Under the pieces are notes generated by a model that was not told where the DNA came from, ran no database searches, and worked only from the letters and a program-made list of their open reading frames with translations. Both the position numbers and the translations under genes were made by a program. Below are positions 7,071-31,058 of a DNA stretch of 64,000 bases, piece by piece; the stretch's first letter is position 1; the number at the start of each line of letters is the position of its first letter. The DNA comes from Escherichia coli (lineage in GTDB: Bacteria > Pseudomonadota > Gammaproteobacteria > Enterobacterales > Enterobacteriaceae). The stretch lies in the NCBI RefSeq assembly GCF_003991155.1, contig NZ_CP031293.1; one strand, given 5' to 3'.

Positions 7071-8703
7071 CCTACTGATAGCGATGATAATCTTTGCGCT
7101 AATCTGGCCTGCAACCGCGCTCAGAGCGGCAGTGAGCAAAACAACCTGGGCGGATGCTCCGGCACGCGAGTTTGTGTTTGTCGAAAACAACTCAGACGAC
7201 AACTTTTTCGTCACTCCTGGCGGGGCGCTGGATCCGCGCCTGACCGGTGCCAACCGCTGGACCGGTTTAAAATACAATGGTTCAGGAACCATCTATCAGC
7301 AAAGCCTCGGCTACATTGATAACGGTTACAACACCGGCCTTTATACCAACTGGAAGTTTGATATGTGGCTGGAAAATTCACCAGTTTCATCTCCTTTAAC
7401 TGGCTTGCGCTGCATCAACTGGTACGCAGGGTGTAATATGACCACCAGTCTTATCCTGCCGCAAACCACCGACGCCAGTGGATTTTATGGCGCGACGGTG
7501 ACCAGCGGCGGCGCGAAATGGATGCACGGCATGTTGTCAGACGCGTTTTACCAGTATCTGCAACAAATGCCCGTCGGCAGCAGCTTTACAATGACCATCA
7601 ATGCCTGCCAGACCTCTGTGAACTATGACGCCAGCAGCGGCGCACGCTGTAAGGATCAGGCCTCCGGCAACTGGTATGTTCGCAACGTCACCCATACGAA
7701 AGCAGCAAATCTACGGTTGATAAATACCCACTCGCTGGCGGAAGTATTTATCAACAGCGACGGAGTACCGACTCTGGGCGAAGGGAACGCCGACTGCCGG
7801 ACGCAAACCATCGGCAGCCGTTCAGGATTAAGTTGTAAGATGGTTAACTATACCCTGCAAACAAACGGACTCAGCAACACCTCAATCCATATATTCCCTG
7901 CGATCGCCAACTCGTCGTTAGCCTCGGCCGTCGGGGCGTACGATATGCAGTTCAGTCTGAATGGCAGTTCATGGAAACCGGTGAGCAATACCGCCTATTA
8001 CTACACCTTCAACGAGATGAAGAGCGCAGACTCGATCTATGTTTTCTTCTCGAGCAATTTCTTTAAGCAGATGGTGAACCTCGGGATCAGCGATATCAAT
8101 ACCAAAGATCTGTTCAACTTTCGCTTTCAGAACACCACATCACCGGAGTCTGGCTGGTATGAATTTTCTACCTCCAACACGCTGATTATCAAACCCCGTG
8201 ATTTCAGCATCAGTATTATCTCCGATGAATATACTCAGACACCGTCGCGGGAGGGATATGTTGGCAGCGGCGAGTCGGCACTCGATTTCGGCTATATCGT
8301 AACCACCAGCGGTAAAACAGCTGCTGACGAAGTGCTGATCAAGGTGACCGGACCCGCGCAGGTGATTGGCGGGCGCTCCTATTGTGTCTTCAGCTCCGAT
8401 GACGGTAAGGCGAAAGTACCGTTCCCGGCGACGCTTTCCTTTATTACCCGCAACGGAGCTACAAAAACCTACGATGCCGGGTGCGATGATAGCTGGCGGG
8501 ATATGACCGATGCGCTGTGGCTGACTACACCGTGGACTGATATCTCTGGCGAAGTGGGGCAGATGGATAAGACCACAGTCAAATTTTCGATTCCAATGGA
8601 TAACGCCATTTCGCTGCGTACGGTAGATGATAACGGCTGGTTTGGCGAAGTCAGCGCTTCAGGAGAGATTCATGTTCAGGCGACGTGGCGTAACATTAAC
8701 TAA
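7060..8703 (+). CDS. ecpD: ECP tip/adhesin subunit
   Basis: 547 aa with a signal peptide. Overlaps the ecpC stop by 11 nt. Position in the ecp operon. Confidence 0.85.
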
Positions 8704-11478: not shown

Positions 11479-11497
11479 AATGGTGCGATAATAGGAA
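11479..11497. repeat. attR: distal copy of the thrW 3' end
   Basis: AATGGTGCGATAATAGGA matches AATGGTGCCGATAATAGGA at 31059-31077, with one C missing. Confidence 0.75.
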
Positions 11498-11558
11498 CAA
11501 TACACATAGGCGATAAGCTTTGTTTTTGTTGCCTTTTTTATTGTTCATTTTTTATAGA

Positions 11559-11578
11559 TACCCCCAAAAGTACCCCCA
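11559..11578. repeat. tandem TACCCCCA arm-type repeats (attR arm)
   Basis: TACCCCCAaaagTACCCCCA sits about 60 bp inside attR. The same pair with the same 12-bp period occurs at 30928-30947 next to int. Confidence 0.6.
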
Positions 11579-11697
11579 TATCTTTTTCCGCCCCTGAAAT
11601 TTGGTTGTTATTCATACAGCATATCAGGCGGTAACGCTCTCCCTTTAACCCACTTATTGTATGATAGTGCTATCCCACAATAAGGAATCAGCCAGCC

Positions 11698-13195: not shown

Positions 13196-13477
13196 CTACC
13201 TTTGCCTCTTGCCGCCATTTAACCGGAAGGCGTTACCGTTCGGTTGCGCTATCCCCATGCGGTGTTGCGTTTCGGTAACAGCTTTATGCAGGTCGCCAAA
13301 TTCCTCAACCTTCACGGGCGGGCGCTTCACGTTCTCCAGACACGTTTCACGGCGGCGCTTTATCCATTCCCGATCATCGTCCTCGGTGCATAACAGCATG
13401 ACTTCCATCCATCGTGCGGCAGCTCTCCGGTATAGCCCTTTTGACTCCAGCTCTTCAGCTTTCCTGTCCCTTATCAT
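13196..13477 (-). CDS. PerC/Pch-family transcriptional activator-like protein
   Basis: 93 aa. MIRDRKAEELESKGLYRRAAARWMEVML...RRRETCL matches the PerC-family signature (LE-KGL-RRAA-RW) as I recall it. Confidence 0.6.
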   Translation of the reverse strand: MIRDRKAEELESKGLYRRAAARWMEVMLLCTEDDDREWIKRRRETCLENVKRPPVKVEEFGDLHKAVTETQHRMGIAQPNGNAFRLNGGKRQR

Positions 13478-13506: not shown

Positions 13507-13634
13507 AAAAGGTGTTGGTTCAGTTGGTTCAGTTGGTTCAATTTGTAAAGATCGTTGTTTTTATTGTGTTTTTTCTGAAATGTTGAACCAACATCAACTC
13601 ATTTTGAACCAACACAGCCCAGCTCTGAACCAAC
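13507..13634. repeat. iteron-type origin-like element (ori-prime / crr-like)
   Basis: Three contiguous GTTGGTTCA (13514-13540), a 43-bp AT-rich spacer, then three inverted TGAACCAAC at 13584, 13605 and 13626 (21-bp phasing). Confidence 0.7.
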
Positions 13635-13686
13635 AACACAGCGATAGCTTTGTGATTGGTCCGTTATTTTCTGGCTGATATTTGAG

Positions 13687-13717
13687 CGTATAACAGTGTT
13701 ATACAGTGGTATACTGT
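13687..13717. promoter_or_regulatory. two adjacent palindromic operator-like sites upstream of the RHH gene
   Basis: TATAACAgTGTTATA (13687-13701) and ATACAGTggtatACTGTAT (13699-13717). They overlap a TATACT -10-like hexamer. Confidence 0.4.
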
Positions 13718-13736
13718 ATGGATATTACTCACTGAT

Positions 13737-14192
13737 ATGGTCTTTGCAATGAGCAAATCTAATCTGATCGCGTTCCGCATCCCATCTGAATTGCAGGATG
13801 AGTTTAATCGGTCTGTTCTCGCTTCTGGAGGGGATAAAACCTCCTGGCTTGTTGATGCGATTCGCATGAAGCTGGGACAGCCGGAAAAGTCTATTGATTC
13901 ACGAATGCTTGGGCTGGTGGAGCGCATGGAAAAAGCCGCTGCGTCGCTTATTGCCGGAAAGCCGAACATCCCACCAAAGCCATATAACGAAACGGCAGTT
14001 ATAAAGATCATTGCCGATACCATCCAACAGGGATTTGATAATGGGCGTGTGATAGCTGAACGGATCAATGAAGCAGGCTATCAAACAAAAGCTGGTAAAG
14101 CGTGGGATAAAGATATTTACAGCGCGTGGAAGCGTCAGGGAAGCAATGCTGAAAAGTTAAAAGCGGTGATTGATTGTAAGGTCAGCGTATAA
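13737..14192 (+). CDS. ribbon-helix-helix (Arc/Mnt/CopG-like) DNA-binding protein with an extra C-terminal domain
   Basis: N-terminus SNLIAFRIPSELQDEFNRSVLASGGDKTSWLVDAIRMKL fits the RHH strand-helix-helix pattern. The alternative start is 13749. The remaining ~100 aa are unassigned. Confidence 0.55.
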   Translation: MVFAMSKSNLIAFRIPSELQDEFNRSVLASGGDKTSWLVDAIRMKLGQPEKSIDSRMLGLVERMEKAAASLIAGKPNIPPKPYNETAVIKIIADTIQQGFDNGRVIAERINEAGYQTKAGKAWDKDIYSAWKRQGSNAEKLKAVIDCKVSV

Positions 14193-14271
14193 ACATGAGT
14201 GCCCATTGGAAAGCTGCTTGGGCCAATACCTTTATACACCAGCAGGTGGTGACGATAGGTGAGGATTAGGC

Positions 14272-14493
14272 ATGAAAGGCAGAACGCCACACATTGAACA
14301 TCAAGCCAACCACTTCTCGGATGTTCGCAATGAGATGATTGCCATTCGCGGTGATATGCACGGCTTGGAGCGTCGAATTATTGATAAGATTGATGAAAAT
14401 AGAGATAAGGCCAGTGAAAATCAAAAGTGGATCATCGGCCTGTTGATTTTATCAATTCTTATCCCGCTACTTATCGCATTGGTCACAAAATGA
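14272..14493 (+). CDS. 73-aa protein with coiled-coil N-terminus and a single C-terminal TM helix
   Basis: GAGG RBS 9 nt upstream. The C-terminus is WIIGLLILSILIPLLIALVTK. The architecture resembles XhlA/holin-like small membrane proteins (inference only). Confidence 0.5.
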   Translation: MKGRTPHIEHQANHFSDVRNEMIAIRGDMHGLERRIIDKIDENRDKASENQKWIIGLLILSILIPLLIALVTK

Positions 14494-14519
14494 ATATCCA
14501 ATGTGTATGCTGTCGATGC

Positions 14520-14537
14520 TACGCGCGCGTACTTGTC
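14520..14537. repeat. GC-palindrome repeat R2 (TACGCGCGCGTACTTGTC)
   Basis: See R1. Located 27 nt after the stop of the 73-aa gene. Confidence 0.6.
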
Positions 14538-14753
14538 GCAAAATATCAGGCAAAGGCCAGATTCAGAAATTCGTGATAACCACCAGCACAACATGAGAGG
14601 TCATGTAACGCGATTTATCACACCAGATACATGTGATTGGTGTACCCGCATAAAACATCGTCATAGCGCGTCCTGTGCGCATATACGCCGATAATCAACA
14701 CATCACCACCACTCTGTCTCATGTAGAGAACAGTTTTATGGTACTCCCCTCCA

Positions 14754-14770
14754 TCGTGCGCGTACTGGTC
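14754..14770. repeat. GC-palindrome repeat R3 (TCGTGCGCGTACTGGTC)
   Basis: Degenerate copy, same orientation as R1, R2 and R4. Confidence 0.5.
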
Positions 14771-14776
14771 GGACGT

Positions 14777-14798
14777 AGTTGCAAAATTTTTTGCAACT
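14777..14798. repeat. inverted repeat AGTTGCAA-N6-TTGCAACT between R3 and R4
   Basis: 8-bp perfect arms read directly from the sequence. Confidence 0.5.
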
Positions 14799-14806
14799 GA
14801 TACCCC

Positions 14807-14823
14807 TCGCGCGCGTACTGGTC
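14807..14823. repeat. GC-palindrome repeat R4 (TCGCGCGCGTACTGGTC)
   Basis: See R1. Confidence 0.55.
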
Positions 14824-15036
14824 ACGAAATTGGTGTTTTGCTGTGGCAGTGATATCAGAAAAATCTTCCTGTTTCACATAAAGCGGATATGCGCGTAATG
14901 TAACGGCCCCATCAACTGGGAGCGGATTTGAGCCCGAATGTGTAGGCAATGTCACTTAACGTTTGTCGCATACCTTCCAGAAAAAGCGATTCATGAATAA
15001 TAGGGGCATGAATGCCCGGCGTACCGGGCTTATTAG

Positions 15037-15735
15037 TTAATTTGGTGCTTTAGGGTCAACATTAAAAGTTATATCACCTTCTGTATTTTTCCCGGCATAG
15101 CTAGCGGCTATTCTCGCCAACCCTTTGTAATCAGCAATTCCATCAGACTGTTGCGAGACGACTGAGCTACCAACTTTCCATAACATATTAATCTGCCGAT
15201 TATTGAGATAAGCCTTGGCATCAAACGACTGGAGTATCACCCCTGCGCCGTAGAACGTGTCCGTCACAGTTGTGTTATACGCGCCAGTAATTCCATAAGT
15301 AGGCGTATAAACTGTTGTTGCCGTTCCAGTGGTATTAGCTGTACCGTAGCCACCACCATAACTATTGAACGTGGTGTTCGAGTTTCCGTACGTTGTTGCT
15401 GAGCTCACACCAGTTTGCCCGTATATTGGGATGGTTACATTACGAGTATTTGAAATGGCCCCGCTTCTCAAAAAGTTCAAGAGAATTACCTGGTCAGCCA
15501 ATTTTTCATCTTTAACTTGTGTATATCCTTGGCTTGATAAACTGGCGGCTACTACCGTAGCTATTTGAGTGTATTCAATCTGTTTGGTGTTCCAAAGTTC
15601 TTGGCTTGCGGGGATGATCAAGAACTTCTTACCGACAGATTGCCCGGAAGATAAAGCATTGACCGTTACTAACGGTTTTTGTACGCATCCAGCCAATAAT
15701 GACAGGGATAATATTAAAAGAAGATTTTTAATCAT
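15037..15735 (-). CDS. lipoprotein (moron-like)
   Basis: 232 aa. Signal peptide with lipobox MIKNLLLILSLSLLAGC. The central region is Thr/Gly/Tyr/Asn-rich. AGGTGAG RBS. It has its own 150-bp upstream spacer after the 908-aa gene. Confidence 0.75.
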   Translation of the reverse strand: MIKNLLLILSLSLLAGCVQKPLVTVNALSSGQSVGKKFLIIPASQELWNTKQIEYTQIATVVAASLSSQGYTQVKDEKLADQVILLNFLRSGAISNTRNVTIPIYGQTGVSSATTYGNSNTTFNSYGGGYGTANTTGTATTVYTPTYGITGAYNTTVTDTFYGAGVILQSFDAKAYLNNRQINMLWKVGSSVVSQQSDGIADYKGLARIAASYAGKNTEGDITFNVDPKAPN

Positions 15736-15885
15736 GATAATCTCACCTAAGAATTGCGTGGTTATAAATTATCATCACTGTAAGCGAATGTAAGCCACAG
15801 GCTCGTAATGTGATATGGAATTTTGATAGTTGGCTCAATATCAGTATGCCGTCCTTGGCTATTATGGTTTTGTTAGTTAGAGCGT

Positions 15886-18612
15886 CTATTCCCATTCGCT
15901 AACATCTTTCATGCCACTGAGGGTAGCTACAATCCCGGCCCTTGTCAGTTTCACGAATTCTTCAGCCCCAACGGCATCACGAATTGCTTTCATGGCAATT
16001 TTATTGGCCGAAAATCGTTTCTCTGCTGCGGCGATCGCTGCTGGTGATGCCCCTGCGCGCACTGCTTTTGTAGCTTCCTGAACGGCTTTCTCTATCGCAT
16101 ATCGACCACTTCTTGTCGCCCCAATCTTAGCCACAGCATTTCTTAGCGCGCCACCAGCAACCAAACCACTAATCGAACCAATTACACCACCGCCAAAGCC
16201 TCCAGCGATCGCACCTGACTGTTGAACTCCGTTCATAATCACGCCGACGATCTTTGGAAGGCCTGAATCGAGCGTTTTGAGAGCCTCAGTTGTTCTTCCC
16301 GTGCGCTCTACGTATCGCTGCGGTCTGGTACTGGCTTTAGCGAGTACACCGAACTCTTTCATCATTCTACCGAGATCTGGCGCATGACGACTGATGGCGT
16401 TTACATTCTGCTGGGTCATGAGCTTGGCAAAATACTGGATACCTGACTCTTCACCGATTCCTCCCTTCTCTCCCTGCGCCACAGCATGCTGAAGAATAGA
16501 TGCTATTGCAGGTTGGCGTTCTGCTTCCGGCAGCGCGGAGATAAGACGGTGAAAAGCTCCCGTTCCAGTGTTTGCGGATGCCTTAAGCGTATCGGCACCT
16601 TTTCTTACCATAGCGTCTGATGCGAGATCTCGACCAAAAACAGATTCGGCATTTTGTTTGGCGATAATGTAACTTTTAGAGAGATCGTTAGCTTTCTGCC
16701 ATTCTGTGAGGAAGTTTCCTTTTTCAGCCATGATGCGCATGTCATCAGTGATAGCTCTGCGCATTTCTCCGGCAATCCGGGCGGCATTGGCCTTACCTGC
16801 CCGGGTGTTTGCTTGTTCAGCATCAGCAAACTTAGCACGCCATGCCTTCATCCCGTCGAAGGTTATGCCGCCACCTTGGTTGTTGGCAGCCTGAAACTGT
16901 TTCATCTCCGGGCTGAGTGGAACATTGGCTGCTTTTTCTGCTTGGACGACAGCCATCCCATTACTCATTTTCATCCTTTCGCGTGGCATCGTGCTTCGCA
17001 GTTCTGCCCATGCCATATTCTCTGCTGTTTTCATATCACTGAGGCTCGCGATGATGCGCTCTTTAATTGCTGCGCTTTTTTCTGATGCGCTTCCAGACTC
17101 AGCACCGAAATCAGACAACTGCTTATTCAACTTTGAGGATATTTCATTGAAGGCCGTAAGGTGAGCATCCTGAACATTCCCAGGAGTTGATGCCAGAACA
17201 CCTTCTGCTTGGGCAATTCCACGACTACCTGAGCGCATTCCAGGCGTCAGGGTGTTGATATTAATACCAGTGATTTTCGCCGCCTTAGCGACATCATCTC
17301 TGACGTTTGATGCCTGCGATGCGATATGCTCTCGGCCTACGGCAGAACGCGCTGCTTTCGATACATCATTGGCGGTTTCCAGAGTATTTGCTGCCCCTAA
17401 CACATGGCCTGATTGATTTGTATTACTCCGCAATACATCTCGCATTACGTCACTGGCTGTCTGTCCGCTCTTTATTAAAGCGCGTGCTCCTAGCGATCCT
17501 GCTAGGCCAATACCTGTCTCTTTTGCTAGGTCTTCTGGGCTGATCTGCCCGTTCTTTTGGGCGTTCACCAATGTACCTGGCAGGTTTTCTGCCAACATAC
17601 TAGCCACCTTTGTGGCCGCACGTTCAGCACGTGGAGCGTTGGCAACTGAAGAAGCTGCGGTAGCTGCCTTTCCTGCACCTAATCCTGTAATAAGGTAAGG
17701 TGCTAGCTGCTCACCAGCCTGCGCGTATGGATCTGTAGGTTGGTCTACTGGGCGAAAGACAGGTGATATGGGCGTGTATGTGCCATCACCCACACCAAGC
17801 TTCTGAGCTGCCCATGCTCCGGCTGATTGCGCCGCATTGACTACCCCCACGCCTGCGTCCATTACATCAAACGGTATATTAGCAATCCCTCTGGCCATCT
17901 GCTCTGGCGCAGCTTTCAGTCCTGGCGAAAGATATTCCATCTCAGGATTAAGGTTAGACTTGGCTACTTGCTGCTGCGGTTCCCCGGCATTTTCATCGGC
18001 GAGAAACTGAGCTCTTTTCTGCTCCCATGAACTGGCTGTTGGTAGTCCTGCTTCTATGTTCTTAAATTGCTGACGTTTTGCTTCCCATGCAGAAATATCT
18101 CCCACCTGAGAGATTTCTTTATCAAGCTCTGAGTAGTCAGGCTGCTGAAGATTGCGATGTTGACTGGTTTGTGCAAACTGCAAGATTTCACTGTCATCAG
18201 GGATTATTCCGGCATCTGCAAATTTACTTACGTAATTAGCCGTTTCATCTGGCAGTGTAGATTTACCGTTTCTGACGGCATTAATACGAGCATAGCCAGA
18301 ATTATACCCAGCCAATGCCATACCTATATCACCAAATCGCTTCATTCCTTTATTGAGATGGTTTGCTGCGATATCCATTTGCTTTTCAAATGGCAGTGAG
18401 CGCGGATCTGTTCCACGATAACCAGCATCACTCATTACTGAGGGCATCAGTTGAGCAAATCCTCTAGCTCCTTTCGGTGACTCGGCACTTCCGTTACCAC
18501 TAGATTCATTGCCAACTAATGTTTCCATCGTCCCTGATGGGAAACCATATTTTTCATCGAGATGACGGGAATAGGCTTTCTGTTTTTCTGTCAGTTGTGC
18601 CATCATTGCCAT
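15886..18612 (-). CDS. 908-aa protein with N-terminal soluble lytic transglycosylase domain (ejection / internal virion protein-like)
   Basis: SLT motifs near the N-terminus: NESSGN...GARGFAQLMPSV...ALAGYNSGYARI. The remainder is Ala-rich and helical with a Gly-rich hydrophobic segment near the C-terminus. The start overlaps the upstream ORF by 10 nt. Confidence 0.75.
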   Translation of the reverse strand: MAMMAQLTEKQKAYSRHLDEKYGFPSGTMETLVGNESSGNGSAESPKGARGFAQLMPSVMSDAGYRGTDPRSLPFEKQMDIAANHLNKGMKRFGDIGMALAGYNSGYARINAVRNGKSTLPDETANYVSKFADAGIIPDDSEILQFAQTSQHRNLQQPDYSELDKEISQVGDISAWEAKRQQFKNIEAGLPTASSWEQKRAQFLADENAGEPQQQVAKSNLNPEMEYLSPGLKAAPEQMARGIANIPFDVMDAGVGVVNAAQSAGAWAAQKLGVGDGTYTPISPVFRPVDQPTDPYAQAGEQLAPYLITGLGAGKAATAASSVANAPRAERAATKVASMLAENLPGTLVNAQKNGQISPEDLAKETGIGLAGSLGARALIKSGQTASDVMRDVLRSNTNQSGHVLGAANTLETANDVSKAARSAVGREHIASQASNVRDDVAKAAKITGININTLTPGMRSGSRGIAQAEGVLASTPGNVQDAHLTAFNEISSKLNKQLSDFGAESGSASEKSAAIKERIIASLSDMKTAENMAWAELRSTMPRERMKMSNGMAVVQAEKAANVPLSPEMKQFQAANNQGGGITFDGMKAWRAKFADAEQANTRAGKANAARIAGEMRRAITDDMRIMAEKGNFLTEWQKANDLSKSYIIAKQNAESVFGRDLASDAMVRKGADTLKASANTGTGAFHRLISALPEAERQPAIASILQHAVAQGEKGGIGEESGIQYFAKLMTQQNVNAISRHAPDLGRMMKEFGVLAKASTRPQRYVERTGRTTEALKTLDSGLPKIVGVIMNGVQQSGAIAGGFGGGVIGSISGLVAGGALRNAVAKIGATRSGRYAIEKAVQEATKAVRAGASPAAIAAAEKRFSANKIAMKAIRDAVGAEEFVKLTRAGIVATLSGMKDVSEWE

Positions 18613-19922
18613 CCCTTAAGTTTTGCCTGATAGTAACTTTCCGGCAGATAGCCATGTGCGGTCACATAATCCTTAACCAGTGAAGGATCCTGCAACAGCA
18701 TTTTGGTATCAGTTTCTTCGTCCTTAGATTTGGTTACAGGAATACCGAGCCCGGCAATCTGTCGTTTCTGCATTCGAATAATTACGTCCTGCGCTTTATT
18801 CAACTCTCGCAAAAATGCCTCATTGCTGGTTGCTGACTTAATGCCATTTTGAGATTGCATAAGGGCAGCCCTTTCCCCTTCGGTTGGGTTAGAGCCAAAA
18901 GTCCCTTTGAGGCTAGGCAGAATAACCTTTAGGTTGTATTCATCAGCTTTGGCGCGTAGGCTTCGTGTGTCTTCTGCTACATCAGGAAGGAATCCAAACC
19001 CCAGCGTCAGGGGGTTATAGTTCTGCGAGCGGGTAACGGCCGAAGGATGTTTCCCTACAATTCCCGCCAGTTCATGACCCACTTCAAGCGCAGAGTTCAA
19101 GGAGTCGATGTTACCTACAACAGTATTAATTTTATCGTTCATCTTCTCCACTTTCGCCTGCTGTACCTTGCTCAGTTCAGCATTGAGCTTGTCTCTCTCG
19201 ATGTCATTTTGAGCACGTCCAAGTCGTGCTTTCAGAACCATTTCTCTCGTGCGTAGTTGGTTATCGGATAGGACTTTGAACTGCTCCATATCGAGACGTC
19301 GATTACCCTGTTCCGCATTAACCTGAGCATTATATGCGGATGTATCTGCGTTCTGCTGTGCAATGCTCTGCCCTTGCTGCTTCTCTTGAACACTAAAGTA
19401 ACTATTTGGATCAGCATGGAGGTGGATGAGGTCAGTGATTCTGTTGAATTCCTGTGGGTCATTCTGCCAAGACTGATAAACCTCTTCAGCAGGAAGACCA
19501 AATCGCTGTAATACTGGATTTGCCTGCTGAATGGCCTTCTGCATGGTCAGTGGATCTCCAGTTTGTGACGCAAGACGCAGATTCATGGCAGCGTCAGCGG
19601 TCTGTCGATTTTGCTCAGCATCAATGAATCCCATCTGTTTTTGAGAATCAGCCATAAACTGGGGATACTGGGCCATTAACTTCTGCACGCCAACACGATC
19701 ATTATTAGCTACCGCACTACCCAACCGTGCCTGATATTCTTTTAACTGCTGGGAAATTTGCGCCTGCTGATTAATCTCAGCAACGCCTCTTAGCCCCTGT
19801 AGCGCCATTAAACCTACGTTTGGCTGCTGCTGATACTGCACAGGCTGAGGAACGGAAGAACGAGGAGCATTATCATTTTGCGGTGCCATGCTAGGCAGCC
19901 CGCCAAGTTGCCATGTCGCCAT
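18603..19922 (-). CDS. 439-aa Gln-rich coiled-coil protein (ejection protein-like, P22 gp20-sized)
   Basis: Long uninterrupted ORF. Its start overlaps the upstream stop by 1 nt. Composition and position inside the cassette are the only evidence. Confidence 0.6.
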   Translation of the reverse strand: MATWQLGGLPSMAPQNDNAPRSSVPQPVQYQQQPNVGLMALQGLRGVAEINQQAQISQQLKEYQARLGSAVANNDRVGVQKLMAQYPQFMADSQKQMGFIDAEQNRQTADAAMNLRLASQTGDPLTMQKAIQQANPVLQRFGLPAEEVYQSWQNDPQEFNRITDLIHLHADPNSYFSVQEKQQGQSIAQQNADTSAYNAQVNAEQGNRRLDMEQFKVLSDNQLRTREMVLKARLGRAQNDIERDKLNAELSKVQQAKVEKMNDKINTVVGNIDSLNSALEVGHELAGIVGKHPSAVTRSQNYNPLTLGFGFLPDVAEDTRSLRAKADEYNLKVILPSLKGTFGSNPTEGERAALMQSQNGIKSATSNEAFLRELNKAQDVIIRMQKRQIAGLGIPVTKSKDEETDTKMLLQDPSLVKDYVTAHGYLPESYYQAKLKGWQ

Positions 19923-20599
19923 TAGAATCCAAGCCCCCCAACAAGACCAATAAGCCCACCACCAATAGCGCCGGCCGCAGTTCCTATTCCAGGAACAACG
20001 GAACCAAGTTGCGCACCCGCTAAAGCGCCTGATGCTGCCCCACCAATACCACGCGCAAGACTGGATGGCTGCTGCGCCTGACCTGCACGAATAGCGCCAA
20101 GCCCCTGCAAGAGTTGTCCGGTATTATTGGCGTAGTTTTGCCCTGCCGTTGCCTGCCCTGATGCCGCATTCATCCCGACATTTAGCAGGTTTCCATAATT
20201 TTGCATTTGCCCACTAAGCCAATTGTTATAAAGCATGGGCGCAATGGAAGATAACTGGTTACTGGTAGCTGTTGAGCCAAGCCCCCCGGTAGCTTCTGCT
20301 GAGACAAGGTTCTGATAACGGGCCTGATCTGCCTGTGTTTTATATAAACCAGAACCAAAGAAATCATTCGCGGCTTTATTCTGCCCTTCCAGAGTCATCA
20401 GTCCTTGCAGTTGTTGTAAAGCAGGCAATCCGACTTCTGCATACGGCTTGAGATTATTCATCACCGTATTCCACTGCTCGCGCTGCAAATCAATTGCCTG
20501 CTGCTGGGCCTTCGCCTGAGCTTTAGAGGCACCACCATCACCGCCTTTTTCGTATACGGCACGATTGAGATGTTTATGAGCTATATGGGTAATTAACAT
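19922..20599 (-). CDS. 225-aa Gly/Ala/Gln-rich protein with hydrophobic Gly-zipper C-terminus (ejection protein-like, P22 gp7-sized)
   Basis: ATGTTAA start/stop overlap with the upstream ORF. C-terminus is GSVVPGIGTAAGAIGGGLIGLVGGLGF. Confidence 0.55.
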   Translation of the reverse strand: MLITHIAHKHLNRAVYEKGGDGGASKAQAKAQQQAIDLQREQWNTVMNNLKPYAEVGLPALQQLQGLMTLEGQNKAANDFFGSGLYKTQADQARYQNLVSAEATGGLGSTATSNQLSSIAPMLYNNWLSGQMQNYGNLLNVGMNAASGQATAGQNYANNTGQLLQGLGAIRAGQAQQPSSLARGIGGAASGALAGAQLGSVVPGIGTAAGAIGGGLIGLVGGLGF

Positions 20600-21054
20600 T
20601 CGCTGAATTCCTTATATTGTTGCCGAGTTAACTGATAAAGCGTTACGCCGACGGGTTTACCACATCTGATATAAGCATCATCAAGGTGACCAACACGGGT
20701 AGCGCCAAGCAAACGGATAATTGCCCGTCCATATTTTGTGGTGTCAGGAACCATAGTGATGCTGTTAAGGAATGGTGAGTTTTCGAGAAGCCATTTGCAG
20801 AATAATCGATGCCCTTGCAGTGCATATTCACCACGGAATCCGGGGTCGTACACCGCATGGCATTCAACAACGCTATGCCAGAAGTTACGCACTTCATGAA
20901 CGCCAGCCAGCACTAATCCTTCGTAGATGCCGAGATATACCGCATCAGGCTTGATGTAGTACGTGTGCCCCGGCTCAACAATATTTTCGGTATTGCCTGG
21001 CTCGTTAAGAAAGGCCTGTAATCGCACAGGGTTATCAATAAATTTTAGTTCCAT
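20593..21054 (-). CDS. 153-aa protein, possible acetyltransferase-like fold (P22 gp14-sized)
   Basis: ORF contains DPGFRGEYALQGHRLFCKWLL, which resembles GNAT motif A. First large gene of the cassette. Assignment is tentative. Confidence 0.5.
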   Translation of the reverse strand: MELKFIDNPVRLQAFLNEPGNTENIVEPGHTYYIKPDAVYLGIYEGLVLAGVHEVRNFWHSVVECHAVYDPGFRGEYALQGHRLFCKWLLENSPFLNSITMVPDTTKYGRAIIRLLGATRVGHLDDAYIRCGKPVGVTLYQLTRQQYKEFSEC

Positions 21055-21070
21055 GCGATGCCATCCATTT

Positions 21071-21232
21071 TCACATACAGCCTGCCAGCGCCTTATCTAT
21101 TAACCCTCGTGCAATTTCATGCAGAGTTGGCGCTACTCCAATTCCTGATTTTTTACGCTGCTCTTCCTGAATTTTCTTTATCGCTTCCATTTGCTTCTCA
21201 CTTATCAATACCGGCTTTACTGAAATAGCCAT
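21071..21232 (-). CDS. 53-aa possible ribbon-helix-helix protein
   Basis: AAGGGGGG RBS before ATG 21232 (MAISVKPVLISEKQMEAIKKI...). The longer 96-aa ORF-track version would include an intrinsic terminator, so the internal start is preferred. Confidence 0.45.
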   Translation of the reverse strand: MAISVKPVLISEKQMEAIKKIQEEQRKKSGIGVAPTLHEIARGLIDKALAGCM

Positions 21233-21328
21233 AACGCCCCCCTTAGAACTGTATAAAACAACAGTTATTATAGTTTCACAAATCGCAATATTCATCATCG
21301 TAATTGCAAAATATGAAACAAATAGCAC

Positions 21329-21361
21329 AAAAAAATGCCACCGCTCAGTAGCTGGTGGCAT
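21329..21361 (-). terminator. rho-independent terminator ending the primase operon
   Basis: On the minus strand: ATGCCACC-N11-GGTGGCAT followed by TTTTTTT. Confidence 0.7.
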
Positions 21362-21681
21362 CGTTCTGTGTGTCAGGTTTTGACAGGTTTTTTATGGACT
21401 CTAAAAACTATATTTATGGTATCGCATTACTCTTCACGGCAGGTGCTTTTCAGTTCTGCCCTTGCTTCTGGCTCCATTGGTAATTTGATTCGCGATCAGC
21501 TATGCGGATGGTTTGCTGAACAGGCATAACAACTTCTCAGAGGCTGTTTTTTGAACTACGAAAATTTCGTAGTGCTCACTTTCAAAAACGTCACGCCCTT
21601 GTACACAGGATTTTACGAAAGTCTCGTAAAACACTCTCTGATGCCAGCCAGGTGTTGTGCGCATCAATTCAGTCACATTGT

Positions 21682-21799
21682 GTCGGTTCAAAATACCGTG
21701 TTGTTGGTTCAGTGTTGGTTCAATAAAAAGAATAAAATCCTTATAAAACAATACACTTTACAAATTGAACCAACTGAACCAACTGAACCAACACCTTTT
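21682..21799. repeat. iteron-type replication origin adjacent to the primase gene
   Basis: GTCGGTTCA and two GTTGGTTCA (21682, 21703, 21714), a 43-bp AT-rich spacer, then three contiguous TGAACCAAC (21766-21792). 21756-21799 is the exact reverse complement of 13507-13550. Confidence 0.75.
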
Positions 21800-21817: not shown

Positions 21818-24577
21818 TCATTCTTCAGATGAGTTATAATCTCCTGGCTGGTAATTGAGTACATAAACGTTTATTTGTCGTCCCTGAATACGTGGTGATT
21901 TTCTTTGGTATCCACGACCGCTGTTTGGTGGGGTTAGCATCCCGGCTTTTTTCAACACTTCAGCAAACTGTTTTGCGTTGAAACCACATGCGATCTCCTT
22001 TTCAAATGTGGCCGGGAATGTGTAGAAAATCATTGGGCTTTCGTCATGTTCTCCACGCTGACGGTATCCGGCTAAATCTTTGATGGGCAAATCTGCCGGG
22101 CTGTATGGAAATGGTGCAAAACGGCTAAGCCCATAGGCATTAAGAAATGCCTCCGTTTGTTCAATAATCTGCTGATGCTCTTTGTTACCTGTGCCGAACT
22201 CGCGCAACCATGCGTTATAGCTGTGCTGTATCGCATCACGGCATGTCTGAGCATCCCAGCCTGTTACAACCTCGCCTAACAACAATGCGGCCTCCAGAAT
22301 GGCAAATCGCGCGGCTACACGGTGAACCTGCTCACCATAATCGGATGGGATCAGGCTTCTCCATCTGCTTTCGCAATCACGAACGGTTTTAATAGCCTGT
22401 TGCTGGTGGTGTGCCAGCCATTTAATCCACTCACGCCCGGACGCGCCGTGGTGATGCTGGTAAGCGTCTTTCAGTGCGTCTGCGTGCTGTTTTCCGTTCT
22501 GGTAATCGTGAAAGCGTACTGCTTTACTCAACGGAATATTCAGCAGTCGCACCAGTTGCCCGGCTTTGGTTTTTCGCCCGGAAGTAGCGATAAATGTTTC
22601 TAAATCCATTTCTCCGGTGCTGATTGCCACTGTACGCCAGCGTTTTAGATCCCGGTTTCCACCATCTTTAGCGCCTTGCAGTTTCCCTACACCGTTAAAT
22701 AACGCATAGGCAGACTGTGAAACGCTGACAGGATCAGCGCCCTGACCAACTTCATCAAGCGGCATTAGTCCGTCATTGTGGGCGGCGGCCTCATTTGCCA
22801 GCCCCAGCGCGGTTCCGTACCACGTCAGCCGCAGTAAATCAGGGTTGCCGTATAAGCTGCTCGCCACGTTTGCCGTGGTGGTCTTACCTGCGCTCGACTG
22901 CTCATAGAAATGAATGCCGAACCCGTCAGCGCCCACCAGCCCAATCAATGGCGCTGCCAGTGCTGCGCCGATCCCGGTCATCATTGAATAGTTACCAAAG
23001 GCCAGACGCGCCACGTTATCACGCCAGCTTTTCGCGCTCCCTGAGACGGTATATCCGGCTGCGGCTGAGCTTCTCCCGCTGAACAGCACAGGATTTTCAG
23101 GTGTTCCGATGATTTCCCCATCAGGCATGATGTACGCTCCGCATTGCCAGCCAGTGGCATGAGCAACACGCCACAATTCACGAGAGCCACTGCGTTGTAG
23201 CCAGTCTGCCAGTATTGCTCTGAGGCTGCTTTTGGTCGTGACATTTACCCCACCAGCTTTAAGTGTGCGCCATCCTTCACGTTCACCAATATCAGCCAGT
23301 GGAATGGCAGCGGTTGTCGGCGTTTCAGAACCAAACGACAGCCAGCGAAGAATGAGATACTGGTCTTTATCGTCTCTGCCAGTACCGATAACGCTTAACG
23401 GAGAACATAACCAGCTTTCGTTATTGATGATTTCTCCACTCTGGCTGTCAGCTCTCGGAGATACCCAATAAATACCATCCTCGCGGCTTTCTATTCTTGG
23501 TTTCAGTGGGTCGGTATCCATAACCTTAAAATCGCTTCCCTCAATGGTCTGTGGCTCCTGTTTCACGCCATTACCCTGTGGTTGGTACATTGACTTATTG
23601 AACGCTTCTGTGGCGCATTTAATGCCGTGTTTTTGGTGGTAATCATTCCAGTCTGCTTTGTGATCTGTCGGGGGTAATGCCACCCATCCAGAAACAGATA
23701 AAGCTGCTTTTTCTGCTGCTATTCTCCCCGTGTTTTGTCTTCCTTCGCTGTGGTCGTTATCCGCAGCAATGATGATTTGTGCTGAAGGAAATTTATCCCG
23801 CAGTACCTGGGCGACATATAACAGGTTCCCGGCATCAATCGCCGCCACTGTCAGCGCCTCTGGACGAATTAAATGGGCAGATAATGCCGTTGCCAGACCT
23901 TCTGCGATTAAGATGCTCTGTGTTGTTTCTGGTGCGTTTATGGCGTGATATGCCCCCCGCTTTGCTGAACCTGTCAGGAGTCTTTTTTCACCATGTGAGG
24001 TAATAGTCTGTGCTGCTGTGACTGCGCCGGATTTATCCACCAGCGCCAGCAACAGAGATCCATCGGGCAACACGGGGAATGTAAAATCACCTACCCCTTT
24101 CGCAACCAGATAATCAGATTTGCCGTTTACAGCCTTTCTGCGCATGTCATCAAACTGACGGGAAAACGTATCCCGTCTTTGTTGTTCGTCCTTCTCTGCC
24201 CTTTTCAGGCGCTCCTGTTCGCGTCGCTGGCGCTCGGTTTCCAGTTGTTCCCGTTTCTGGCTGGTGGCTTCTGGTGTTTCCGTTGTCCGGTAATCAATAC
24301 CCAGAACATCAGCGGCAAGAAGCGCCGCCTCTGTTGTGTCGCAGTTATTTACGCGTTTAATTAAATCCAGCCCATCACCAGCGCCGCACTGATTACAGAT
24401 GAAGCTACCGCGCCCGTTGTCATCGAACCGGAATCGATCTTTGCCCCCACATGCAGGGCAGGGAGCATGACGGCGCGGAGAGTCAGGGACATTTATGTTC
24501 AGGCAGCCCAGCACATGAGGCCAGTTGTTTTCAGACGCACTGATAACCTGACGGATAAGATCAATGTTTCGCATCAC
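21818..24577 (-). CDS. primase-helicase (Zn-ribbon + TOPRIM + DUF927/P-loop), functional analogue of P4 alpha
   Basis: Zn ribbon CPACGGKDRFRFDD...FICNQCG; TOPRIM-like ILIAEGLATALS...IIIAADND; Walker A YEQSSAGKTT. GTG 24577 or ATG 24574 start overlapping the upstream stop. Confidence 0.85.
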   Translation of the reverse strand: MMRNIDLIRQVISASENNWPHVLGCLNINVPDSPRRHAPCPACGGKDRFRFDDNGRGSFICNQCGAGDGLDLIKRVNNCDTTEAALLAADVLGIDYRTTETPEATSQKREQLETERQRREQERLKRAEKDEQQRRDTFSRQFDDMRRKAVNGKSDYLVAKGVGDFTFPVLPDGSLLLALVDKSGAVTAAQTITSHGEKRLLTGSAKRGAYHAINAPETTQSILIAEGLATALSAHLIRPEALTVAAIDAGNLLYVAQVLRDKFPSAQIIIAADNDHSEGRQNTGRIAAEKAALSVSGWVALPPTDHKADWNDYHQKHGIKCATEAFNKSMYQPQGNGVKQEPQTIEGSDFKVMDTDPLKPRIESREDGIYWVSPRADSQSGEIINNESWLCSPLSVIGTGRDDKDQYLILRWLSFGSETPTTAAIPLADIGEREGWRTLKAGGVNVTTKSSLRAILADWLQRSGSRELWRVAHATGWQCGAYIMPDGEIIGTPENPVLFSGRSSAAAGYTVSGSAKSWRDNVARLAFGNYSMMTGIGAALAAPLIGLVGADGFGIHFYEQSSAGKTTTANVASSLYGNPDLLRLTWYGTALGLANEAAAHNDGLMPLDEVGQGADPVSVSQSAYALFNGVGKLQGAKDGGNRDLKRWRTVAISTGEMDLETFIATSGRKTKAGQLVRLLNIPLSKAVRFHDYQNGKQHADALKDAYQHHHGASGREWIKWLAHHQQQAIKTVRDCESRWRSLIPSDYGEQVHRVAARFAILEAALLLGEVVTGWDAQTCRDAIQHSYNAWLREFGTGNKEHQQIIEQTEAFLNAYGLSRFAPFPYSPADLPIKDLAGYRQRGEHDESPMIFYTFPATFEKEIACGFNAKQFAEVLKKAGMLTPPNSGRGYQRKSPRIQGRQINVYVLNYQPGDYNSSEE

Positions 24578-26353: not shown

Positions 26354-26544
26354 TTTTCACCCCCAAGAATTACCAGCTCGGCACGGGCATCGTTAACCAA
26401 AGATGAGCACGCTTTAATCGCATCCACGACATCAGCAGCGTCCATTTCTTCAGCCGAAAGACTGACAGCAACCAGGACAGCCGCTGCTTGCTCGATTAAT
26501 TGAAGTGCGGACGTAAGTCGAGGGGCATTAATTGAGTTATTCAT
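26350..26544 (-). CDS. hypothetical 64-aa helical protein (paralog family A)
   Basis: Start MNNSINAPRL with a G-rich RBS. 8-nt overlap with the upstream stop. Confidence 0.45.
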   Translation of the reverse strand: MNNSINAPRLTSALQLIEQAAAVLVAVSLSAEEMDAADVVDAIKACSSLVNDARAELVILGGEK

Positions 26545-26755
26545 TGGTTGCCCCCGTTTTTCCTGGCATTTCGCCACCTTCCAGCAGGAAATGAACGTCA
26601 CGAACGGCGAGATCCAATATCGCGAGTAACGCCTTCAGTCTTTCGTCTCGTGAGGGAGAGTTGCTCACCAGAATGTCGTTAATCACTTCTGTCAGTGTGA
26701 TGATCTGGCTTGTGCGTTCGAGGGGATCCATATGCACATCGTAGGTTTTAATCAT
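26537..26755 (-). CDS. hypothetical 72-aa helical protein (paralog family A)
   Basis: ATG 26755 preceded by GGAGGTGG; it overlaps the icd-like stop. It is the C-terminal part of the 355-aa composite reading frame listed in the ORF track. Confidence 0.5.
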   Translation of the reverse strand: MIKTYDVHMDPLERTSQIITLTEVINDILVSNSPSRDERLKALLAILDLAVRDVHFLLEGGEMPGKTGATNE

Positions 26756-26942
26756 GAGCCACCTCCATGCGGATACGACCAGCAAAAAAGCAGACGTGAT
26801 CGCGCACCAGAGAACGGCGAGCATCGCGTTCAGACTCGGCAGCAATATGATGAATTTTGGCGGTAATTGTCGAGCAATCGCGGCGAACTGCGGCGATAAT
26901 CCAGATAAATTGCGGTTTTTGGGTAGGGGTAGTAGCCAGCAT
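26748..26942 (-). CDS. Icd-like (cell-division-inhibitor-like) small protein
   Basis: ATG 26942 with GGAGG 7 nt upstream. MLATTPTQKPQFIWIIAAVRR...AAESERDARRSL resembles proteins I remember as annotated Icd-like in P4-like islands. Its RBS is complementary to the upstream antisense RNA. Confidence 0.5.
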   Translation of the reverse strand: MLATTPTQKPQFIWIIAAVRRDCSTITAKIHHIAAESERDARRSLVRDHVCFFAGRIRMEVAHD

Positions 26943-26951
26943 GTGGCAGCC

Positions 26952-26991
26952 TCCATTCGATAGCATGTAACGCTACCACCGGAAACGCCAA
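26952..26991 (-). promoter_or_regulatory. downstream target pair of the CI/C4-like RNA (seqC-like), covering the icd-like RBS
   Basis: Minus strand reads TTGGCGT...TCGAATGGAGG. The two boxes are complementary to ACGCCAA and TCCATTCGA in the RNA loops. Confidence 0.55.
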
Positions 26992-26997
26992 TTTCGC

Positions 26998-27077
26998 TGG
27001 TGGTAGCCCAGACAGGGTTGGCGTAACCGGCTCGAATGGATACCGGCGCTTCCGAAGAAGCCCCTGCCTGAGCCACC
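26998..27077 (-). ncRNA. P4 CI / P1 C4-like antisense immunity RNA (tRNA-like acceptor stem + ACCA 3' end)
   Basis: 80 nt. GGUGGCUCAG pairs with CUGGGCUACC (10 bp, 2 G-U), followed by ACCA. Internal UUCG-capped hairpin GCUUC-UUCG-GAAGC. Exposed UCCAUUCGA and ACGCCAA have complements both upstream and downstream on the same strand. Confidence 0.6.
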
Positions 27078-27144
27078 ATTGATTGACAAAGGCGCTGGAT
27101 TATACACCAACGCCCAAAAAATGGGTGAGTCAGACCTACGACAT

Positions 27145-27166
27145 AAAAAAAGACGCTCGGCGCGTC
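27145..27166 (-). terminator. intrinsic terminator just after the upstream RNA target pair (immunity terminator-like)
   Basis: Minus strand: GACGC-gccga-GCGTC followed by TTTTTTT. It lies inside the 355-aa ORF-track frame. Confidence 0.55.
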
Positions 27167-27174
27167 ATATGTCG

Positions 27175-27198
27175 CCATTCGATTTACTAGGACGCCAA
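27175..27198 (-). promoter_or_regulatory. upstream target pair of the CI/C4-like RNA (seqA-like)
   Basis: Minus strand: TTGGCGT-N9-TCGAATGG. Same two boxes in the same order as the downstream pair. Confidence 0.5.
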
Positions 27199-27597
27199 TC
27201 CCGGCACCCGTTTTATGAGGTGCCTTATAACCATAAACCGTGTTGCCGCATAACGGCAAGCTCTTTTTTATGGACTCCGAAAACTCGCTATTGGAAGCAC
27301 CAGATGCACAGTACATCGCGCTCATTTCGTTAACGTCACGCGCGTGGACGAATGTTTTTGTGGAGTCACTACACGAGCGGAAGACATCATCTACGACCAG
27401 AAATTTTCTGGCGCAGCCGCTGACCTTCTCAATGCTAATATCATCGCCCGAGATTTCTGATATGGTTAAGGCATCCGTTCCGACCACCAGCAAATGATAA
27501 ACTTTGCTTGTATCTGCTGTATTAATGCCTGACTTTGCCGTCATATTGCTGGATTTTGGCGACATACCAGCCAGTGAAAATGTCTTCTTCTGGACGG

Positions 27598-27780
27598 TTA
27601 GCATTTGTTAACCTCCGCGAACTCCTTCATGAAACGCGCCAGCGGTTGTACGCATGGCGATTGATACCCGTCGCGATAAAACGTCACTCGGTTGTGAGAC
27701 ACGCTTTCGACAGTAACGAGTGCTCCGTGGGCATCTTTGTAGCGTTTTTGTGGTTGTGGTGTTCCTGTTGGCTTAGACAT
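27598..27780 (-). CDS. hypothetical 60-aa protein
   Basis: ATG 27780 with a GGAGG RBS, overlapping the antirepressor stop by 8 nt (MSKPTGTPQPQKRYKDAHGALVTVESV...). Confidence 0.5.
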   Translation of the reverse strand: MSKPTGTPQPQKRYKDAHGALVTVESVSHNRVTFYRDGYQSPCVQPLARFMKEFAEVNKC

Positions 27781-30895: not shown

Positions 30896-30927
30896 TTGGG
30901 GGTACCTCCACTAAACCGAACAGCAAA

Positions 30928-30947
30928 TACCCCCATAAGTACCCCCA
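30928..30947. repeat. tandem TACCCCCA arm-type repeats (attL arm)
   Basis: TACCCCCAtaagTACCCCCA. A third, inverted copy lies at 30897-30904 over the int RBS. Confidence 0.6.
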
Positions 30948-31058
30948 TCTGACCGTAGATTTTGAGGGACTTTAGTAGACGTCAAAAGACGAACGGGGCT
31001 TTAATACGCGGATTATAAGGGGTTTTGAAAGACTTTAGTAGACTTGGGGAGATGTTTG

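Follow-up and report, generated by a model that had tools for sequence, protein, structure and literature searches.

The 64,000-nt stretch of Escherichia coli DNA analysed here (assembly GCF_003991155.1, contig NZ_CP031293.1; hereafter the window) contains, between positions 15886 and 21232, a minus-strand operon of genes homologous to the ejection-protein (E-protein) genes of phage P22. The operon lies in an island of about 19.6 kb, integrated in the tRNA gene thrW, which, judged by its DNA, is a variant of the published and experimentally validated satellite EcCIMP1 and not a new element. With slightly better than even confidence, the region is interpreted as the ejection-protein operon of a phage-inducible chromosomal island (PICI) of the EcCIMP1 family, a satellite of P22-like (Lederbergvirus) podophages in thrW, the E-proteins of which would be loaded into helper procapsids, perhaps to pass SieA-type exclusion. 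The island suggests particles stolen from a helper and provided with the satellite's own injection machinery. An earlier sequence-only reading of this DNA had offered three explanations, and the one in which a satellite supplies its own ejection proteins to helper-built particles turned out to be the best supported.

EcCIMP1 is a 19,963-bp PICI from the tRNA-Thr site of E. coli MP1 (Pick, Stadel & Raivio 2025, ISME J; PMC11773190; OR778291). The P22-like podophage Kapi1 is required for its excision and circularisation and also transduces it (PMC11773190). The window island shares with EcCIMP1 the integration site (tRNA-Thr between proA and yagU), the attachment (att) core and the gene order. 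The p53 (the 53-aa product of the lead gene), lipoprotein and PerC proteins of the two are identical, and the DNA identities were determined as 100% for p53, 98.1% for gp14, 98.2% for gp7, 99.2% for gp20, 99.6% for gp16, 99.4% for the lipoprotein and 99.4% for the primase. In contrast to EcCIMP1, the window island has neither alpA_1 nor an adjacent Vat island, and the small cargo genes differ. Of the features by which Gram-negative PICIs and EcCIMP1 are recognised, the following were found: an integrase, att sites at a tRNA gene, AlpA downstream of int, a primase with an adjacent iteron origin and a length of 19.6 kb. Helper-dependent excision and transduction are known from EcCIMP1 with Kapi1, and the window copy is known from sequence alone. 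The window as a whole is 100% identical in its DNA to E. coli STEC383.

No structural genes were identified in the EcCIMP1 paper; EcCIMP1_017-019 were described as weakly similar to DNA transfer and DUF2824 proteins, and a packaging role was proposed (PMC11773190). That paper does not report the complete gp14-7-20-16 set or the operator, nor the fold of the lipoprotein, the types of cassette, their conservation across genera or the selection. The sequence-only reading had been aware of no described satellite of this kind. This stands in so far as the complete ejectosome was not recognised, but not for the element itself, since EcCIMP1 was published in 2025 with genes drawn as having 'DNA transfer' and DUF2824 similarity. 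In the literature searched, no paper describing a satellite with an ejection-protein module was found. New in comparison with that literature are the recognition of a complete, selected and self-regulated P22-type ejectosome as the 'hijack' module that a widespread family of satellites has conserved, the types of its cassette and the TraT-like lipoprotein linked to it.

The ejection operon and its control region

All five co-directional ORFs (open reading frames) that the sequence-only reading had placed between 21232 and 15886 were recovered (Table 1). Successive reading frames share 7, 1 and 10 (or 4) nt, and 16 nt separate p53 from the next one, in keeping with translational coupling. The RefSeq start of the 908-aa protein lies two codons later, resulting in 906 aa.

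The similarity to ejection proteins was strong in the Pfam and PHROG searches and in the direct comparison with P22 gp14, gp7, gp20 and gp16, and the central claim of a P22-type ejection cassette in a satellite-like island devoid of other virion genes holds. The 153-aa protein belongs to the gp14 family. The gp7-family protein scored 245.8 bits with PF25688 (cutoff 28 bits), and PF16928 matched residues 34-196 of gp20. In the 908-aa protein the SLT domain occupies residues 17-119 (PF01464 score 48, cutoff 21.3 bits) and the match to phrog_770, 'DNA transfer protein', residues 189-864; homologs of this gp16 carry a precomputed PF26808 match. The SLT motifs ES, GFAQLMP (GYxQLMP) and AGYNSG (AGYNxG) are invariant in satellite and phage homologs, and the N-terminal propeptide-like segment of gp7, which is cleaved in P22, is conserved with Kapi1. 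That gp14 ('head morphogenesis'), the N-terminal segment of gp7 and the catalytic SLT motifs have all been retained points to a virion route. The 'assembly' role of P22 gp14 is taken here from its PHROG and RefSeq label, no citable statement having been found. Sequence searches of the PDB with all four cassette proteins yielded no relatives, and PADLOC gave no match with the cassette and cargo proteins.

The identities to P22 were 23% for gp14 (2e-8), 56% for gp7 (5e-54), 28% for the N-terminal 203 aa of gp20 (1e-13) and 46% for a 76-aa block of gp16 (2e-15); the C-terminal half of gp20 was not alignable to P22 or Kapi1. The identity to Kapi1 falls along the operon from 84% for gp14 (Kapi1_055) to 58% for gp7, 26% for gp20 and 25% for gp16. 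Among 50,697 phage records, full-length homologs of the SLT-gp16 fusion were detected in phages Dewey and Huey (47% identity). CUS-3, epsilon34 and HK620 have gp16 bodies 48-52% identical to that of the island, and the range is 46-52% when Dewey and Huey are included.

As in P22 and other Lederbergvirus phages, the four families are encoded by coupled genes in the order 14-7-20-16, with the gp14 gene directly upstream of gene 7 as in Kapi1. The mosaic boundaries of the cassette group gp7 with the N-terminus of gp20, and the C-terminus of gp20 with gp16, in agreement with pairings known to be functional (PMC10883804). In contrast to P22, where these genes lie between the tail-needle gene 26 and the sieA/immI region and tailspike, the cassette stands outside a late virion operon, has its own promoter, operator and a lead gene absent from phages, and is followed by a lipoprotein gene. 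The gp16 proteins of the island, Dewey and Huey carry the N-terminal SLT domain, whereas those of P22, Kapi1, HK620 and CUS-3 do not, and the island gp20, named type A below, has no counterpart of more than 29% identity among the 50,697 phage records. The layout is also analogous to that of T7 gp14-gp15-gp16, where a small protein of the outer membrane is combined with a periplasmic tube and with a large protein of the inner membrane that has a lytic transglycosylase at its N-terminus (PMC8954989), but no sequence relationship to T7 was detected beyond the SLT domain. Thus, of the resemblances to the P22 and T7 ejection sets that had been noted earlier, the former is one of sequence homology and gene order and the latter one of analogy only.

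The strong terminator noted earlier ahead of the cassette is present and is kept in seven divergent satellites. In the alignment of these seven, the region upstream of p53 has the terminator hairpin, a dyad, TATAAT and the Shine-Dalgarno sequence all conserved. The dyad has the form TTTCAT-N5-GCAAT ... ATTGC-N5-TGAAA, and the invariant columns are its symmetric positions and the -10 element. Its arms flank a weak -35 (ATGAAT, 21295-21290), a perfect -10 TATAAT follows at 21272-21267, and the strong Shine-Dalgarno sequence AAGGGGGG precedes p53. Within the island the dyad occurs only here; it is not enriched in Kapi1, and a consensus promoter scan gave no match at this site. From its sequence and conservation the region would act as promoter and operator of the cassette. 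The ejection operon is self-contained, comprising terminator, dyad operator, promoter, p53, gp14, gp7, gp20 and SLT-gp16; the conserved dyad and a sixth conserved module gene, that of the lipoprotein, had been overlooked by the sequence-only reading.

p53 heads the cassette in most satellites examined (it is not called or absent in L018 and L024), with 81-85% identity in the Salmonella and metagenome satellites and 50% in that of Pectobacterium. The label 'RHH-like' (ribbon-helix-helix) previously given to it could not be established. No match was obtained in Pfam, PHROG, NCBIfam or PADLOC, nor by tblastn against phages. A single-sequence AlphaFold2 model predicts an extended N-terminus and two helices, compatible with a ribbon-helix-helix protein, and a Foldseek search of the PDB with this model gave no significant match. 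p53 is possibly a small DNA-binding regulator and would be the obvious candidate to bind the upstream dyad.

Conservation, selection and cassette types

Homologs of the type-A gp20 are spread over the Enterobacterales. Those with 49-83% identity were found in satellite context, with the synteny of the module kept behind a satellite primase. The order there is int, AlpA, Bro/AntA, Ash, primase/DUF927, p53, (gp14, gp7), gp20, SLT-gp16 and sometimes the lipoprotein. Such loci were detected in Salmonella (L017-L019), Pectobacterium (L016), Serratia (L023) and metagenome contigs (L015, L025), and one decayed copy (L024) was seen. Homologs with at most 46% identity belong to complete P22-like prophages, e.g. 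in Serratia (L020), Providencia (L021) and L022, in the order terminase, portal, scaffold, coat, gp4, gp10, gp26, gp14, gp7, gp20, gp16, mnt/arc and tailspike. The IMG/VR matches are viral contigs of 17-22 kb from isolate genomes or one metagenome and do not constitute evidence of encapsidation. Between primase and p53, the Salmonella satellites have extra genes (6531-8450), including one for a ProQ-domain protein, and the metagenome satellite L015 has a gene for a single-stranded DNA-binding protein.

The dN/dS values (ratios of nonsynonymous to synonymous change) against EcCIMP1 were 0.14 for gp14, 0.10 for gp7, 0.11 for gp20 and 0.10 for gp16, compared with 0.13 for the primase; the pooled cassette changes were 32 synonymous and 12 nonsynonymous. 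In comparison with a Salmonella satellite, at near saturation of synonymous sites, dN/dS was 0.06-0.085 for the cassette genes and 0.04 for the lipoprotein, and the proportion of nonsynonymous differences (pN) was 0.08-0.13 in the cassette against 0.22 in the primase. The cassette is under purifying selection equal to or stronger than that on the primase, and the check across relatives proposed earlier resulted in values of about 0.1 or less.

In a collection of 5,426 complete E. coli genomes, the head of the cassette (p53 and promoter) was present in 500, some of them having as many as three copies, so that a single genome can host several islands of this family. In STEC383 (NZ_CP091026.1), a second place matching the p53/promoter head lies outside the window. 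The type-A gp20-gp16 DNA was found at 99% identity or more in 71-73 of the genomes, and all seven copies examined in their context lie in islands. Below 99%, the next matches are partial, of 65-69%, to the C-terminal part of prophage gp16 genes, and no prophage carried type-A gp20-gp16 above about 69% nucleotide identity in this collection. The module was, therefore, not recently captured from any sampled phage or prophage.

Four cassette types were distinguished. Type A consists of p53, gp14, gp7, gp20 (439 aa), SLT-gp16 (908 aa) and the lipoprotein, and occurs in the window, in L008 (yicC site, different integrase) and in L006 (DUF5906 replicase). Type B has the same p53, gp14 and gp7 followed by a gp20 of 473 aa and a gp16 of 701 aa (L004, L010, L011, L012); the recombination breakpoint between A and B lies 161 nt into gp20. 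Types C and D have a p53-like gene and no gp14 or gp7, type C with a gp20 of 488 aa and a gp16 of 701 aa (L005, L014) and type D with gp20 and gp16 88% nucleotide-identical to Kapi1's own (L013). The invariant core across the types is p53, gp20 and gp16. The types are swappable on a common backbone, and the slot clearly exchanges modules with phages.

The genes were intact in nearly all copies examined, and frequent inactivating mutations were not seen. Truncated type-B gp16 'pseudogenes' were considered as a sign of decay and rejected as an artefact of the PGAP annotation, the 701-aa ORF being intact in every locus. PGAP marks the 701-aa 'injection protein' as incomplete in L004, L005 and L010 despite intact ORFs, which could make such islands look decayed. 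Islands of this kind are now scored as doubtful 'type C' PICIs or 'incomplete prophages' because their E-protein genes look like phage remnants.

These data bear on the possibility that the cassette is the decay remnant of a P22-like prophage once in thrW that became fused to an unrelated int/primase island. P22-like phages are reported to use thrW, and the genes are ultimately of phage origin. However, no truncated structural genes stand on either side of the cassette, which has its own conserved terminator, operator and promoter and is headed by a gene known only from satellites; cassettes built in this way are also found at different sites of integration and alongside different integrases and replicases; the genes are conserved across genera with dN/dS of about 0.1 or less; and no type-A prophage copy was found in the 5,426 genomes. 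The remnant explanation was rejected as extremely improbable, and the captured prophage fragment of the sequence-only reading was likewise dismissed as a recent event. The DNA is not tied to full P22-like prophages.

A second possibility is that the cassette serves as a recombination module, in which gp14-gp7 homology with the helper would lead to cointegrates and passive headful packaging or to exchange of E-protein alleles, the proteins being secondary. The island does indeed share DNA with Kapi1 in the gp14-gp7 region and nowhere else (81% over 596 nt, locally 90%). A comparison of the island with Kapi1 DNA at word size 9 matched only gp14/gp7 and revealed no pac-site or late-promoter mimic, and no packaging gene was found. 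The exchange of modules with phages and the low transduction rate of EcCIMP1 (PMC11773190) are also in line with such a role. On the other side, every gene is under strong purifying selection at the level of its protein, and this holds too for gp20 and gp16, the DNA of which is not homologous to that of the helper; gp14 and gp7 are missing from types C and D; and the dedicated promoter, operator and Shine-Dalgarno sites imply expression. We regard the recombination module as very unlikely.

The lipoprotein gene and the remainder of the island

The lipoprotein (lipobox LLAGC) goes with type A across genera, and its distant homologs carry DUF4136. A model based on a multiple sequence alignment (pLDDT 82) predicts a PelC/TraT/DUF4136-type fold with a long beta-hairpin, resembling ring-forming outer-membrane lipoproteins. 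Foldseek assigned TraT with a probability of 0.82-0.87, and the Pfam scores for TraT and DUF4136 were below threshold. TraT of F-like plasmids is a surface-exclusion lipoprotein, which the island protein resembles in its lipobox and in its predicted fold. The gene holds the same position after gene 16 as sieA in P22. SieA, however, is an unrelated inner-membrane protein, and the lipoprotein gene is on the same strand as gene 16. As modelled, the lipoprotein is a candidate for a protein of the cell surface or of superinfection exclusion. It would probably be an exclusion factor in its own right, expressed by the resident island, and it could underlie the EcCIMP1-dependent superinfection immunity. 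A promoter-like site (9/12 matches) is located at 15861-15888, in the 150-nt gap between the gp16 and lipoprotein genes, and a GC-rich hairpin (15004-15029) lies just past the lipoprotein stop codon; the lipoprotein may thus also be expressed alone, like sieA from a prophage.

A variable cargo slot (13640-15036) separates the lipoprotein gene from that of PerC. It has two plus-strand ORFs (Table 1), and 28-nt CGCGCGCGTACTTGTC-type repeats occur at 13132, 14522 and 14808. The slot looks like a defence/cargo hotspot because related islands carry Abi_2 or ImmA/IrrE there. The PerC-family protein (13196-13477) is WP_000617443.1 and is identical to EcCIMP1_025, which silences LEE1 expression (Pick et al., PMC11773190). 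The island may affect virulence regulation in its host (strain name STEC383).

The island spans about 19.6 kb between the two copies of the att core, in agreement with the size read earlier, and lies in thrW between proA and the pao/yagU region. The core TCCTATTATC is the one sequenced for EcCIMP1 excision (PMC11773190); the window has two copies of this 10-mer, where 0.05 would be expected. A 22-nt direct repeat, ATACCCCCA[A/T]AAGTACCCCCAT, is located at 11558-11579 and 30927-30948, about 70-140 nt inside each att core, and may represent arm-type binding sites of the integrase.

The two inverted iteron copies reported by the sequence-only reading were confirmed (inverted repeats I1/I3/I9: 55 nt 93%, 33 nt 82% and 21 nt 90% complementary). 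The cassette lies between them but not 'exactly', as had been stated, as the interval 13640-21678 also contains the lipoprotein gene and two small ORFs. Two inverted iteron sites about 8 kb apart recall the ori/crr arrangement of satellite P4. Together with Ash, an Icd-like gene, AlpA and an alpha-like primase, they make the island a mixture of P4 and PICI. Scans of every ORF with Pfam and PHROG assigned the remaining ones to Int, AlpA, AntA, DUF4222, Ash, the Zn-ribbon/Toprim/DUF927 primase, PerC, PRiA4_ORF3 and small unknowns. They gave no match to capsid, terminase, portal, tail or lysis genes, and the earlier statement that nothing else virion-related is present stands. Likewise, no island ORF matched a profile of a packaging-redirection gene (Rpp, TerS, Ppi or a capsid-size factor), or of P4-type psu, delta or sid in Pfam or PHROG. 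The ash gene (26537-27604) is labelled an incomplete pseudogene by PGAP despite an intact full ORF.

Table 1. Features of the island, with positions in the window.
Feature	Position	Strand	Evidence or remarks
Intrinsic terminator, insulating the cassette from the primase/ori region	21329-21361	-	GCCACC..GGTGGC hairpin and T-run; terminator scan and sequence
Putative cassette promoter and operator	21267-21318	-	dyad arms TTTCATATTTTGCAAT (21318-21303) and ATTGCGATTTGTGAAA (21289-21274)
p53, 53-aa lead gene	21071-21232	-	seen in these satellites only
gp14-family protein, 153 aa (DUF2824, 'head morphogenesis')	20593-21054	-	PF11039 1.5e-61; phrog_651 1e-66
gp7-family ejection protein, 225 aa	19922-20599	-	PF25688 (P22_gp7) 6.6e-73; phrog_598
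gp20-family ejection protein (periplasmic conduit), 439 aa, type A	18603-19922	-	PF16928 (Inj_translocase) 3.7e-22; phrog_917 1e-44; phrog_2534 1e-42
Ejection protein, 908 aa; N-terminal SLT lytic transglycosylase fused to P22 gp16-family body	15886-18612	-	PF01464 1.1e-12; phrog_770 5.3e-121
Outer-membrane-type lipoprotein, 232 aa, sixth gene of type-A module	15037-15735	-	lipobox
Cargo-slot ORF	14272-14493	+	C-terminal transmembrane helix; phrog_6324
Cargo-slot ORF	13749-14192	+	
Second iteron cluster, inverted relative to the ori-proximal set	13507-13639		TGAACCAAC/GTTGGTTCA units; resembles P4 crr
Distal att core, island end far from thrW	11487-11496	-	TCCTATTATC, exact 10-mer
Ori-proximal iteron cluster, directly 3' of the primase gene	21679-21799		three tandem GTTGGTTCA units and further TGAACCAAC copies
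Satellite primase/replicase (Zn-ribbon, Toprim, DUF927)	21818-24577	-	PF08273, PF13362, PF06048; phrog_1139 2.4e-178
AlpA regulator	29050-29253	-	PF05930 7e-20
Tyrosine integrase	29681-30895	-	PF00589, PF13356, PF22022
Second att core, within tRNA-Thr(CGT) thrW (31061-31136)	31068-31077	-	TCCTATTATC

Proposed function of the ejection proteins and its meaning

From the homology, context, conservation, selection and dedicated control region determined in this analysis, we infer capsid loading and a selective benefit to the satellite. Once the helper is induced and the island is excised and replicating, the ejection operon would be switched on, and its products would be taken up into helper procapsids just as the E-proteins of the helper itself are. 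Particles from that cell, including those with island DNA, would then carry the satellite's conduit, in which gp7 would form the outer-membrane channel and gp20 the periplasmic tube, while gp16 would handle the inner membrane and its SLT domain would cut peptidoglycan. The entry of the satellite would become independent of the helper's E-protein type. It could include SieA-protected cells, i.e. lysogens of helper-like phages, which are the recipients where the satellite can be remobilised.

The properties of P22 E-proteins are relevant here. Sets that are only 22-26% identical still assemble into P22 virions and function (PMC10883804). gp16 and gp20 must be a matched pair, mismatched pairs resulting in non-infectious P22 particles, and gp7 is interchangeable (Leavitt et al. 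2024, PMC10883804). Mutations escaping SieA map to the C-terminal parts of gp16 and gp20, and the HK620 E-proteins are partly SieA-resistant (PMC10883804). In the MP1 transcriptome paper, EcCIMP1 genes are reported to be up-regulated in lysogens; the reads of the gp14 region could cross-map with Kapi1.

Several observations weigh against the loading of satellite E-proteins into helper procapsids. These genes were not tested in the EcCIMP1 paper (PMC11773190), and the presence of their products in particles is a prediction from sequence. The transduction of EcCIMP1 is very low, about 5e3 per ml, which leaves a transfer benefit unproven (PMC11773190). As E-proteins enter procapsids before the DNA, they could not be targeted to satellite-filled heads, and helper virions would be changed too. 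The titres of Kapi1, however, are not affected by EcCIMP1 (PMC11773190). SieA is robust to most divergent E-protein sets, of which only that of HK620 escaped, and partly (Leavitt et al., PMC10883804). A Kapi1-like prophage was found in only 2 of the 21 EcCIMP1 strains, and no pac-site or late-promoter mimic was found in the island by comparison with Kapi1. Finally, two cassettes are damaged: gp20 of L006 has a frameshift, and gp16 of L013 (E. coli FORC_031, 326-5643) contains IS3 fragments and a group II intron (ltrA) that disrupt it.

The same data were considered in terms of interference or defence. Island gp20 and gp16, being only 25-26% identical to those of Kapi1, would co-assemble with mismatched helper partners and yield non-infectious helper virions, as mismatched pairs do in P22 (PMC10883804), or the resident proteins would block incoming P22-like phages. 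Either way the cassette would be a weapon against phages and would not serve transfer. In lysogens, EcCIMP1 adds superinfection immunity against Kapi1 (PMC11773190), and a TraT-like lipoprotein adjoins the cassette. However, Kapi1 titres on induction are not lowered by EcCIMP1 (PMC11773190), the cassette retains a full matched set together with the assembly gene gp14, and for the helper-like proteins of type D (88% at the nucleotide level) poisoning through mismatch would be impossible. The E-proteins lack signal peptides by which they could reach the envelope from within the cell, PADLOC gave no match, and the lipoprotein alone could explain the immunity phenotype. Interference is considered unlikely, and the exclusion device proposed by the sequence-only reading is retained as a minor rival which fits the adjacent lipoprotein better than the E-proteins.

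Rescue of helpers was also considered, the cassette complementing helper prophages with lost or damaged E-protein genes, so that even defective ones would yield infectious particles to the satellite. A comparable insurance effect is known from alpA_1, which can stand in for Kapi1 xis (PMC11773190), P22 works with foreign sets of E-proteins (PMC10883804), and gp20 and gp16 are the only E-proteins that types C and D provide. This explanation is a special case of the loading model and still needs helper capsids to be loaded. Nothing indicates that helper prophages are commonly without E genes, and the diversification into types remote from all sequenced phages would not be explained. We judge it quite unlikely as the main function.

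The loading of satellite E-proteins into helper procapsids is, thus, the preferred interpretation. A wider proposal, which we put forward tentatively and hold to be rather less probable than not, is that a widespread Enterobacterales satellite family present in about 9% of complete E. coli genomes hijacks the particles of P22-like podophages and replaces or supplements the helper conduit with a swappable gp20/gp16 pair, with or without gp14 and gp7. The satellite would then decide which cells are entered, including SieA-guarded helper lysogens, and the TraT-like lipoprotein would exclude competitors.

The known ways in which satellites exploit phages concern induction, capsid size, packaging specificity and capsid building. 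Capsid-forming PICIs and P4 (Sid, Psu) likewise add their own structural or morphogenetic proteins to helper-derived particles. Those satellites, however, alter or build capsids, whereas this island has no capsid, sid, psu or delta homologs. To our knowledge, no satellite that alters or builds capsids has been reported to supply a DNA-delivery conduit. If the interpretation is correct, a satellite with its own ejection machinery would add the entry step to the modes of piracy, as a new category that targets the delivery of the genome in place of capsid size or packaging. The system is directly testable, as a validated helper-satellite pair (Kapi1 and EcCIMP1) and P22 genetics exist. The islands are common in commensal and pathogenic E. 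coli, and their genes include virulence regulators of the PerC type and a varying defence cargo. The fact that few virion genes of P22-like phages vary as much as those of the E-proteins would also find a concrete explanation, in an arms race that involves phages, satellites and exclusion systems.

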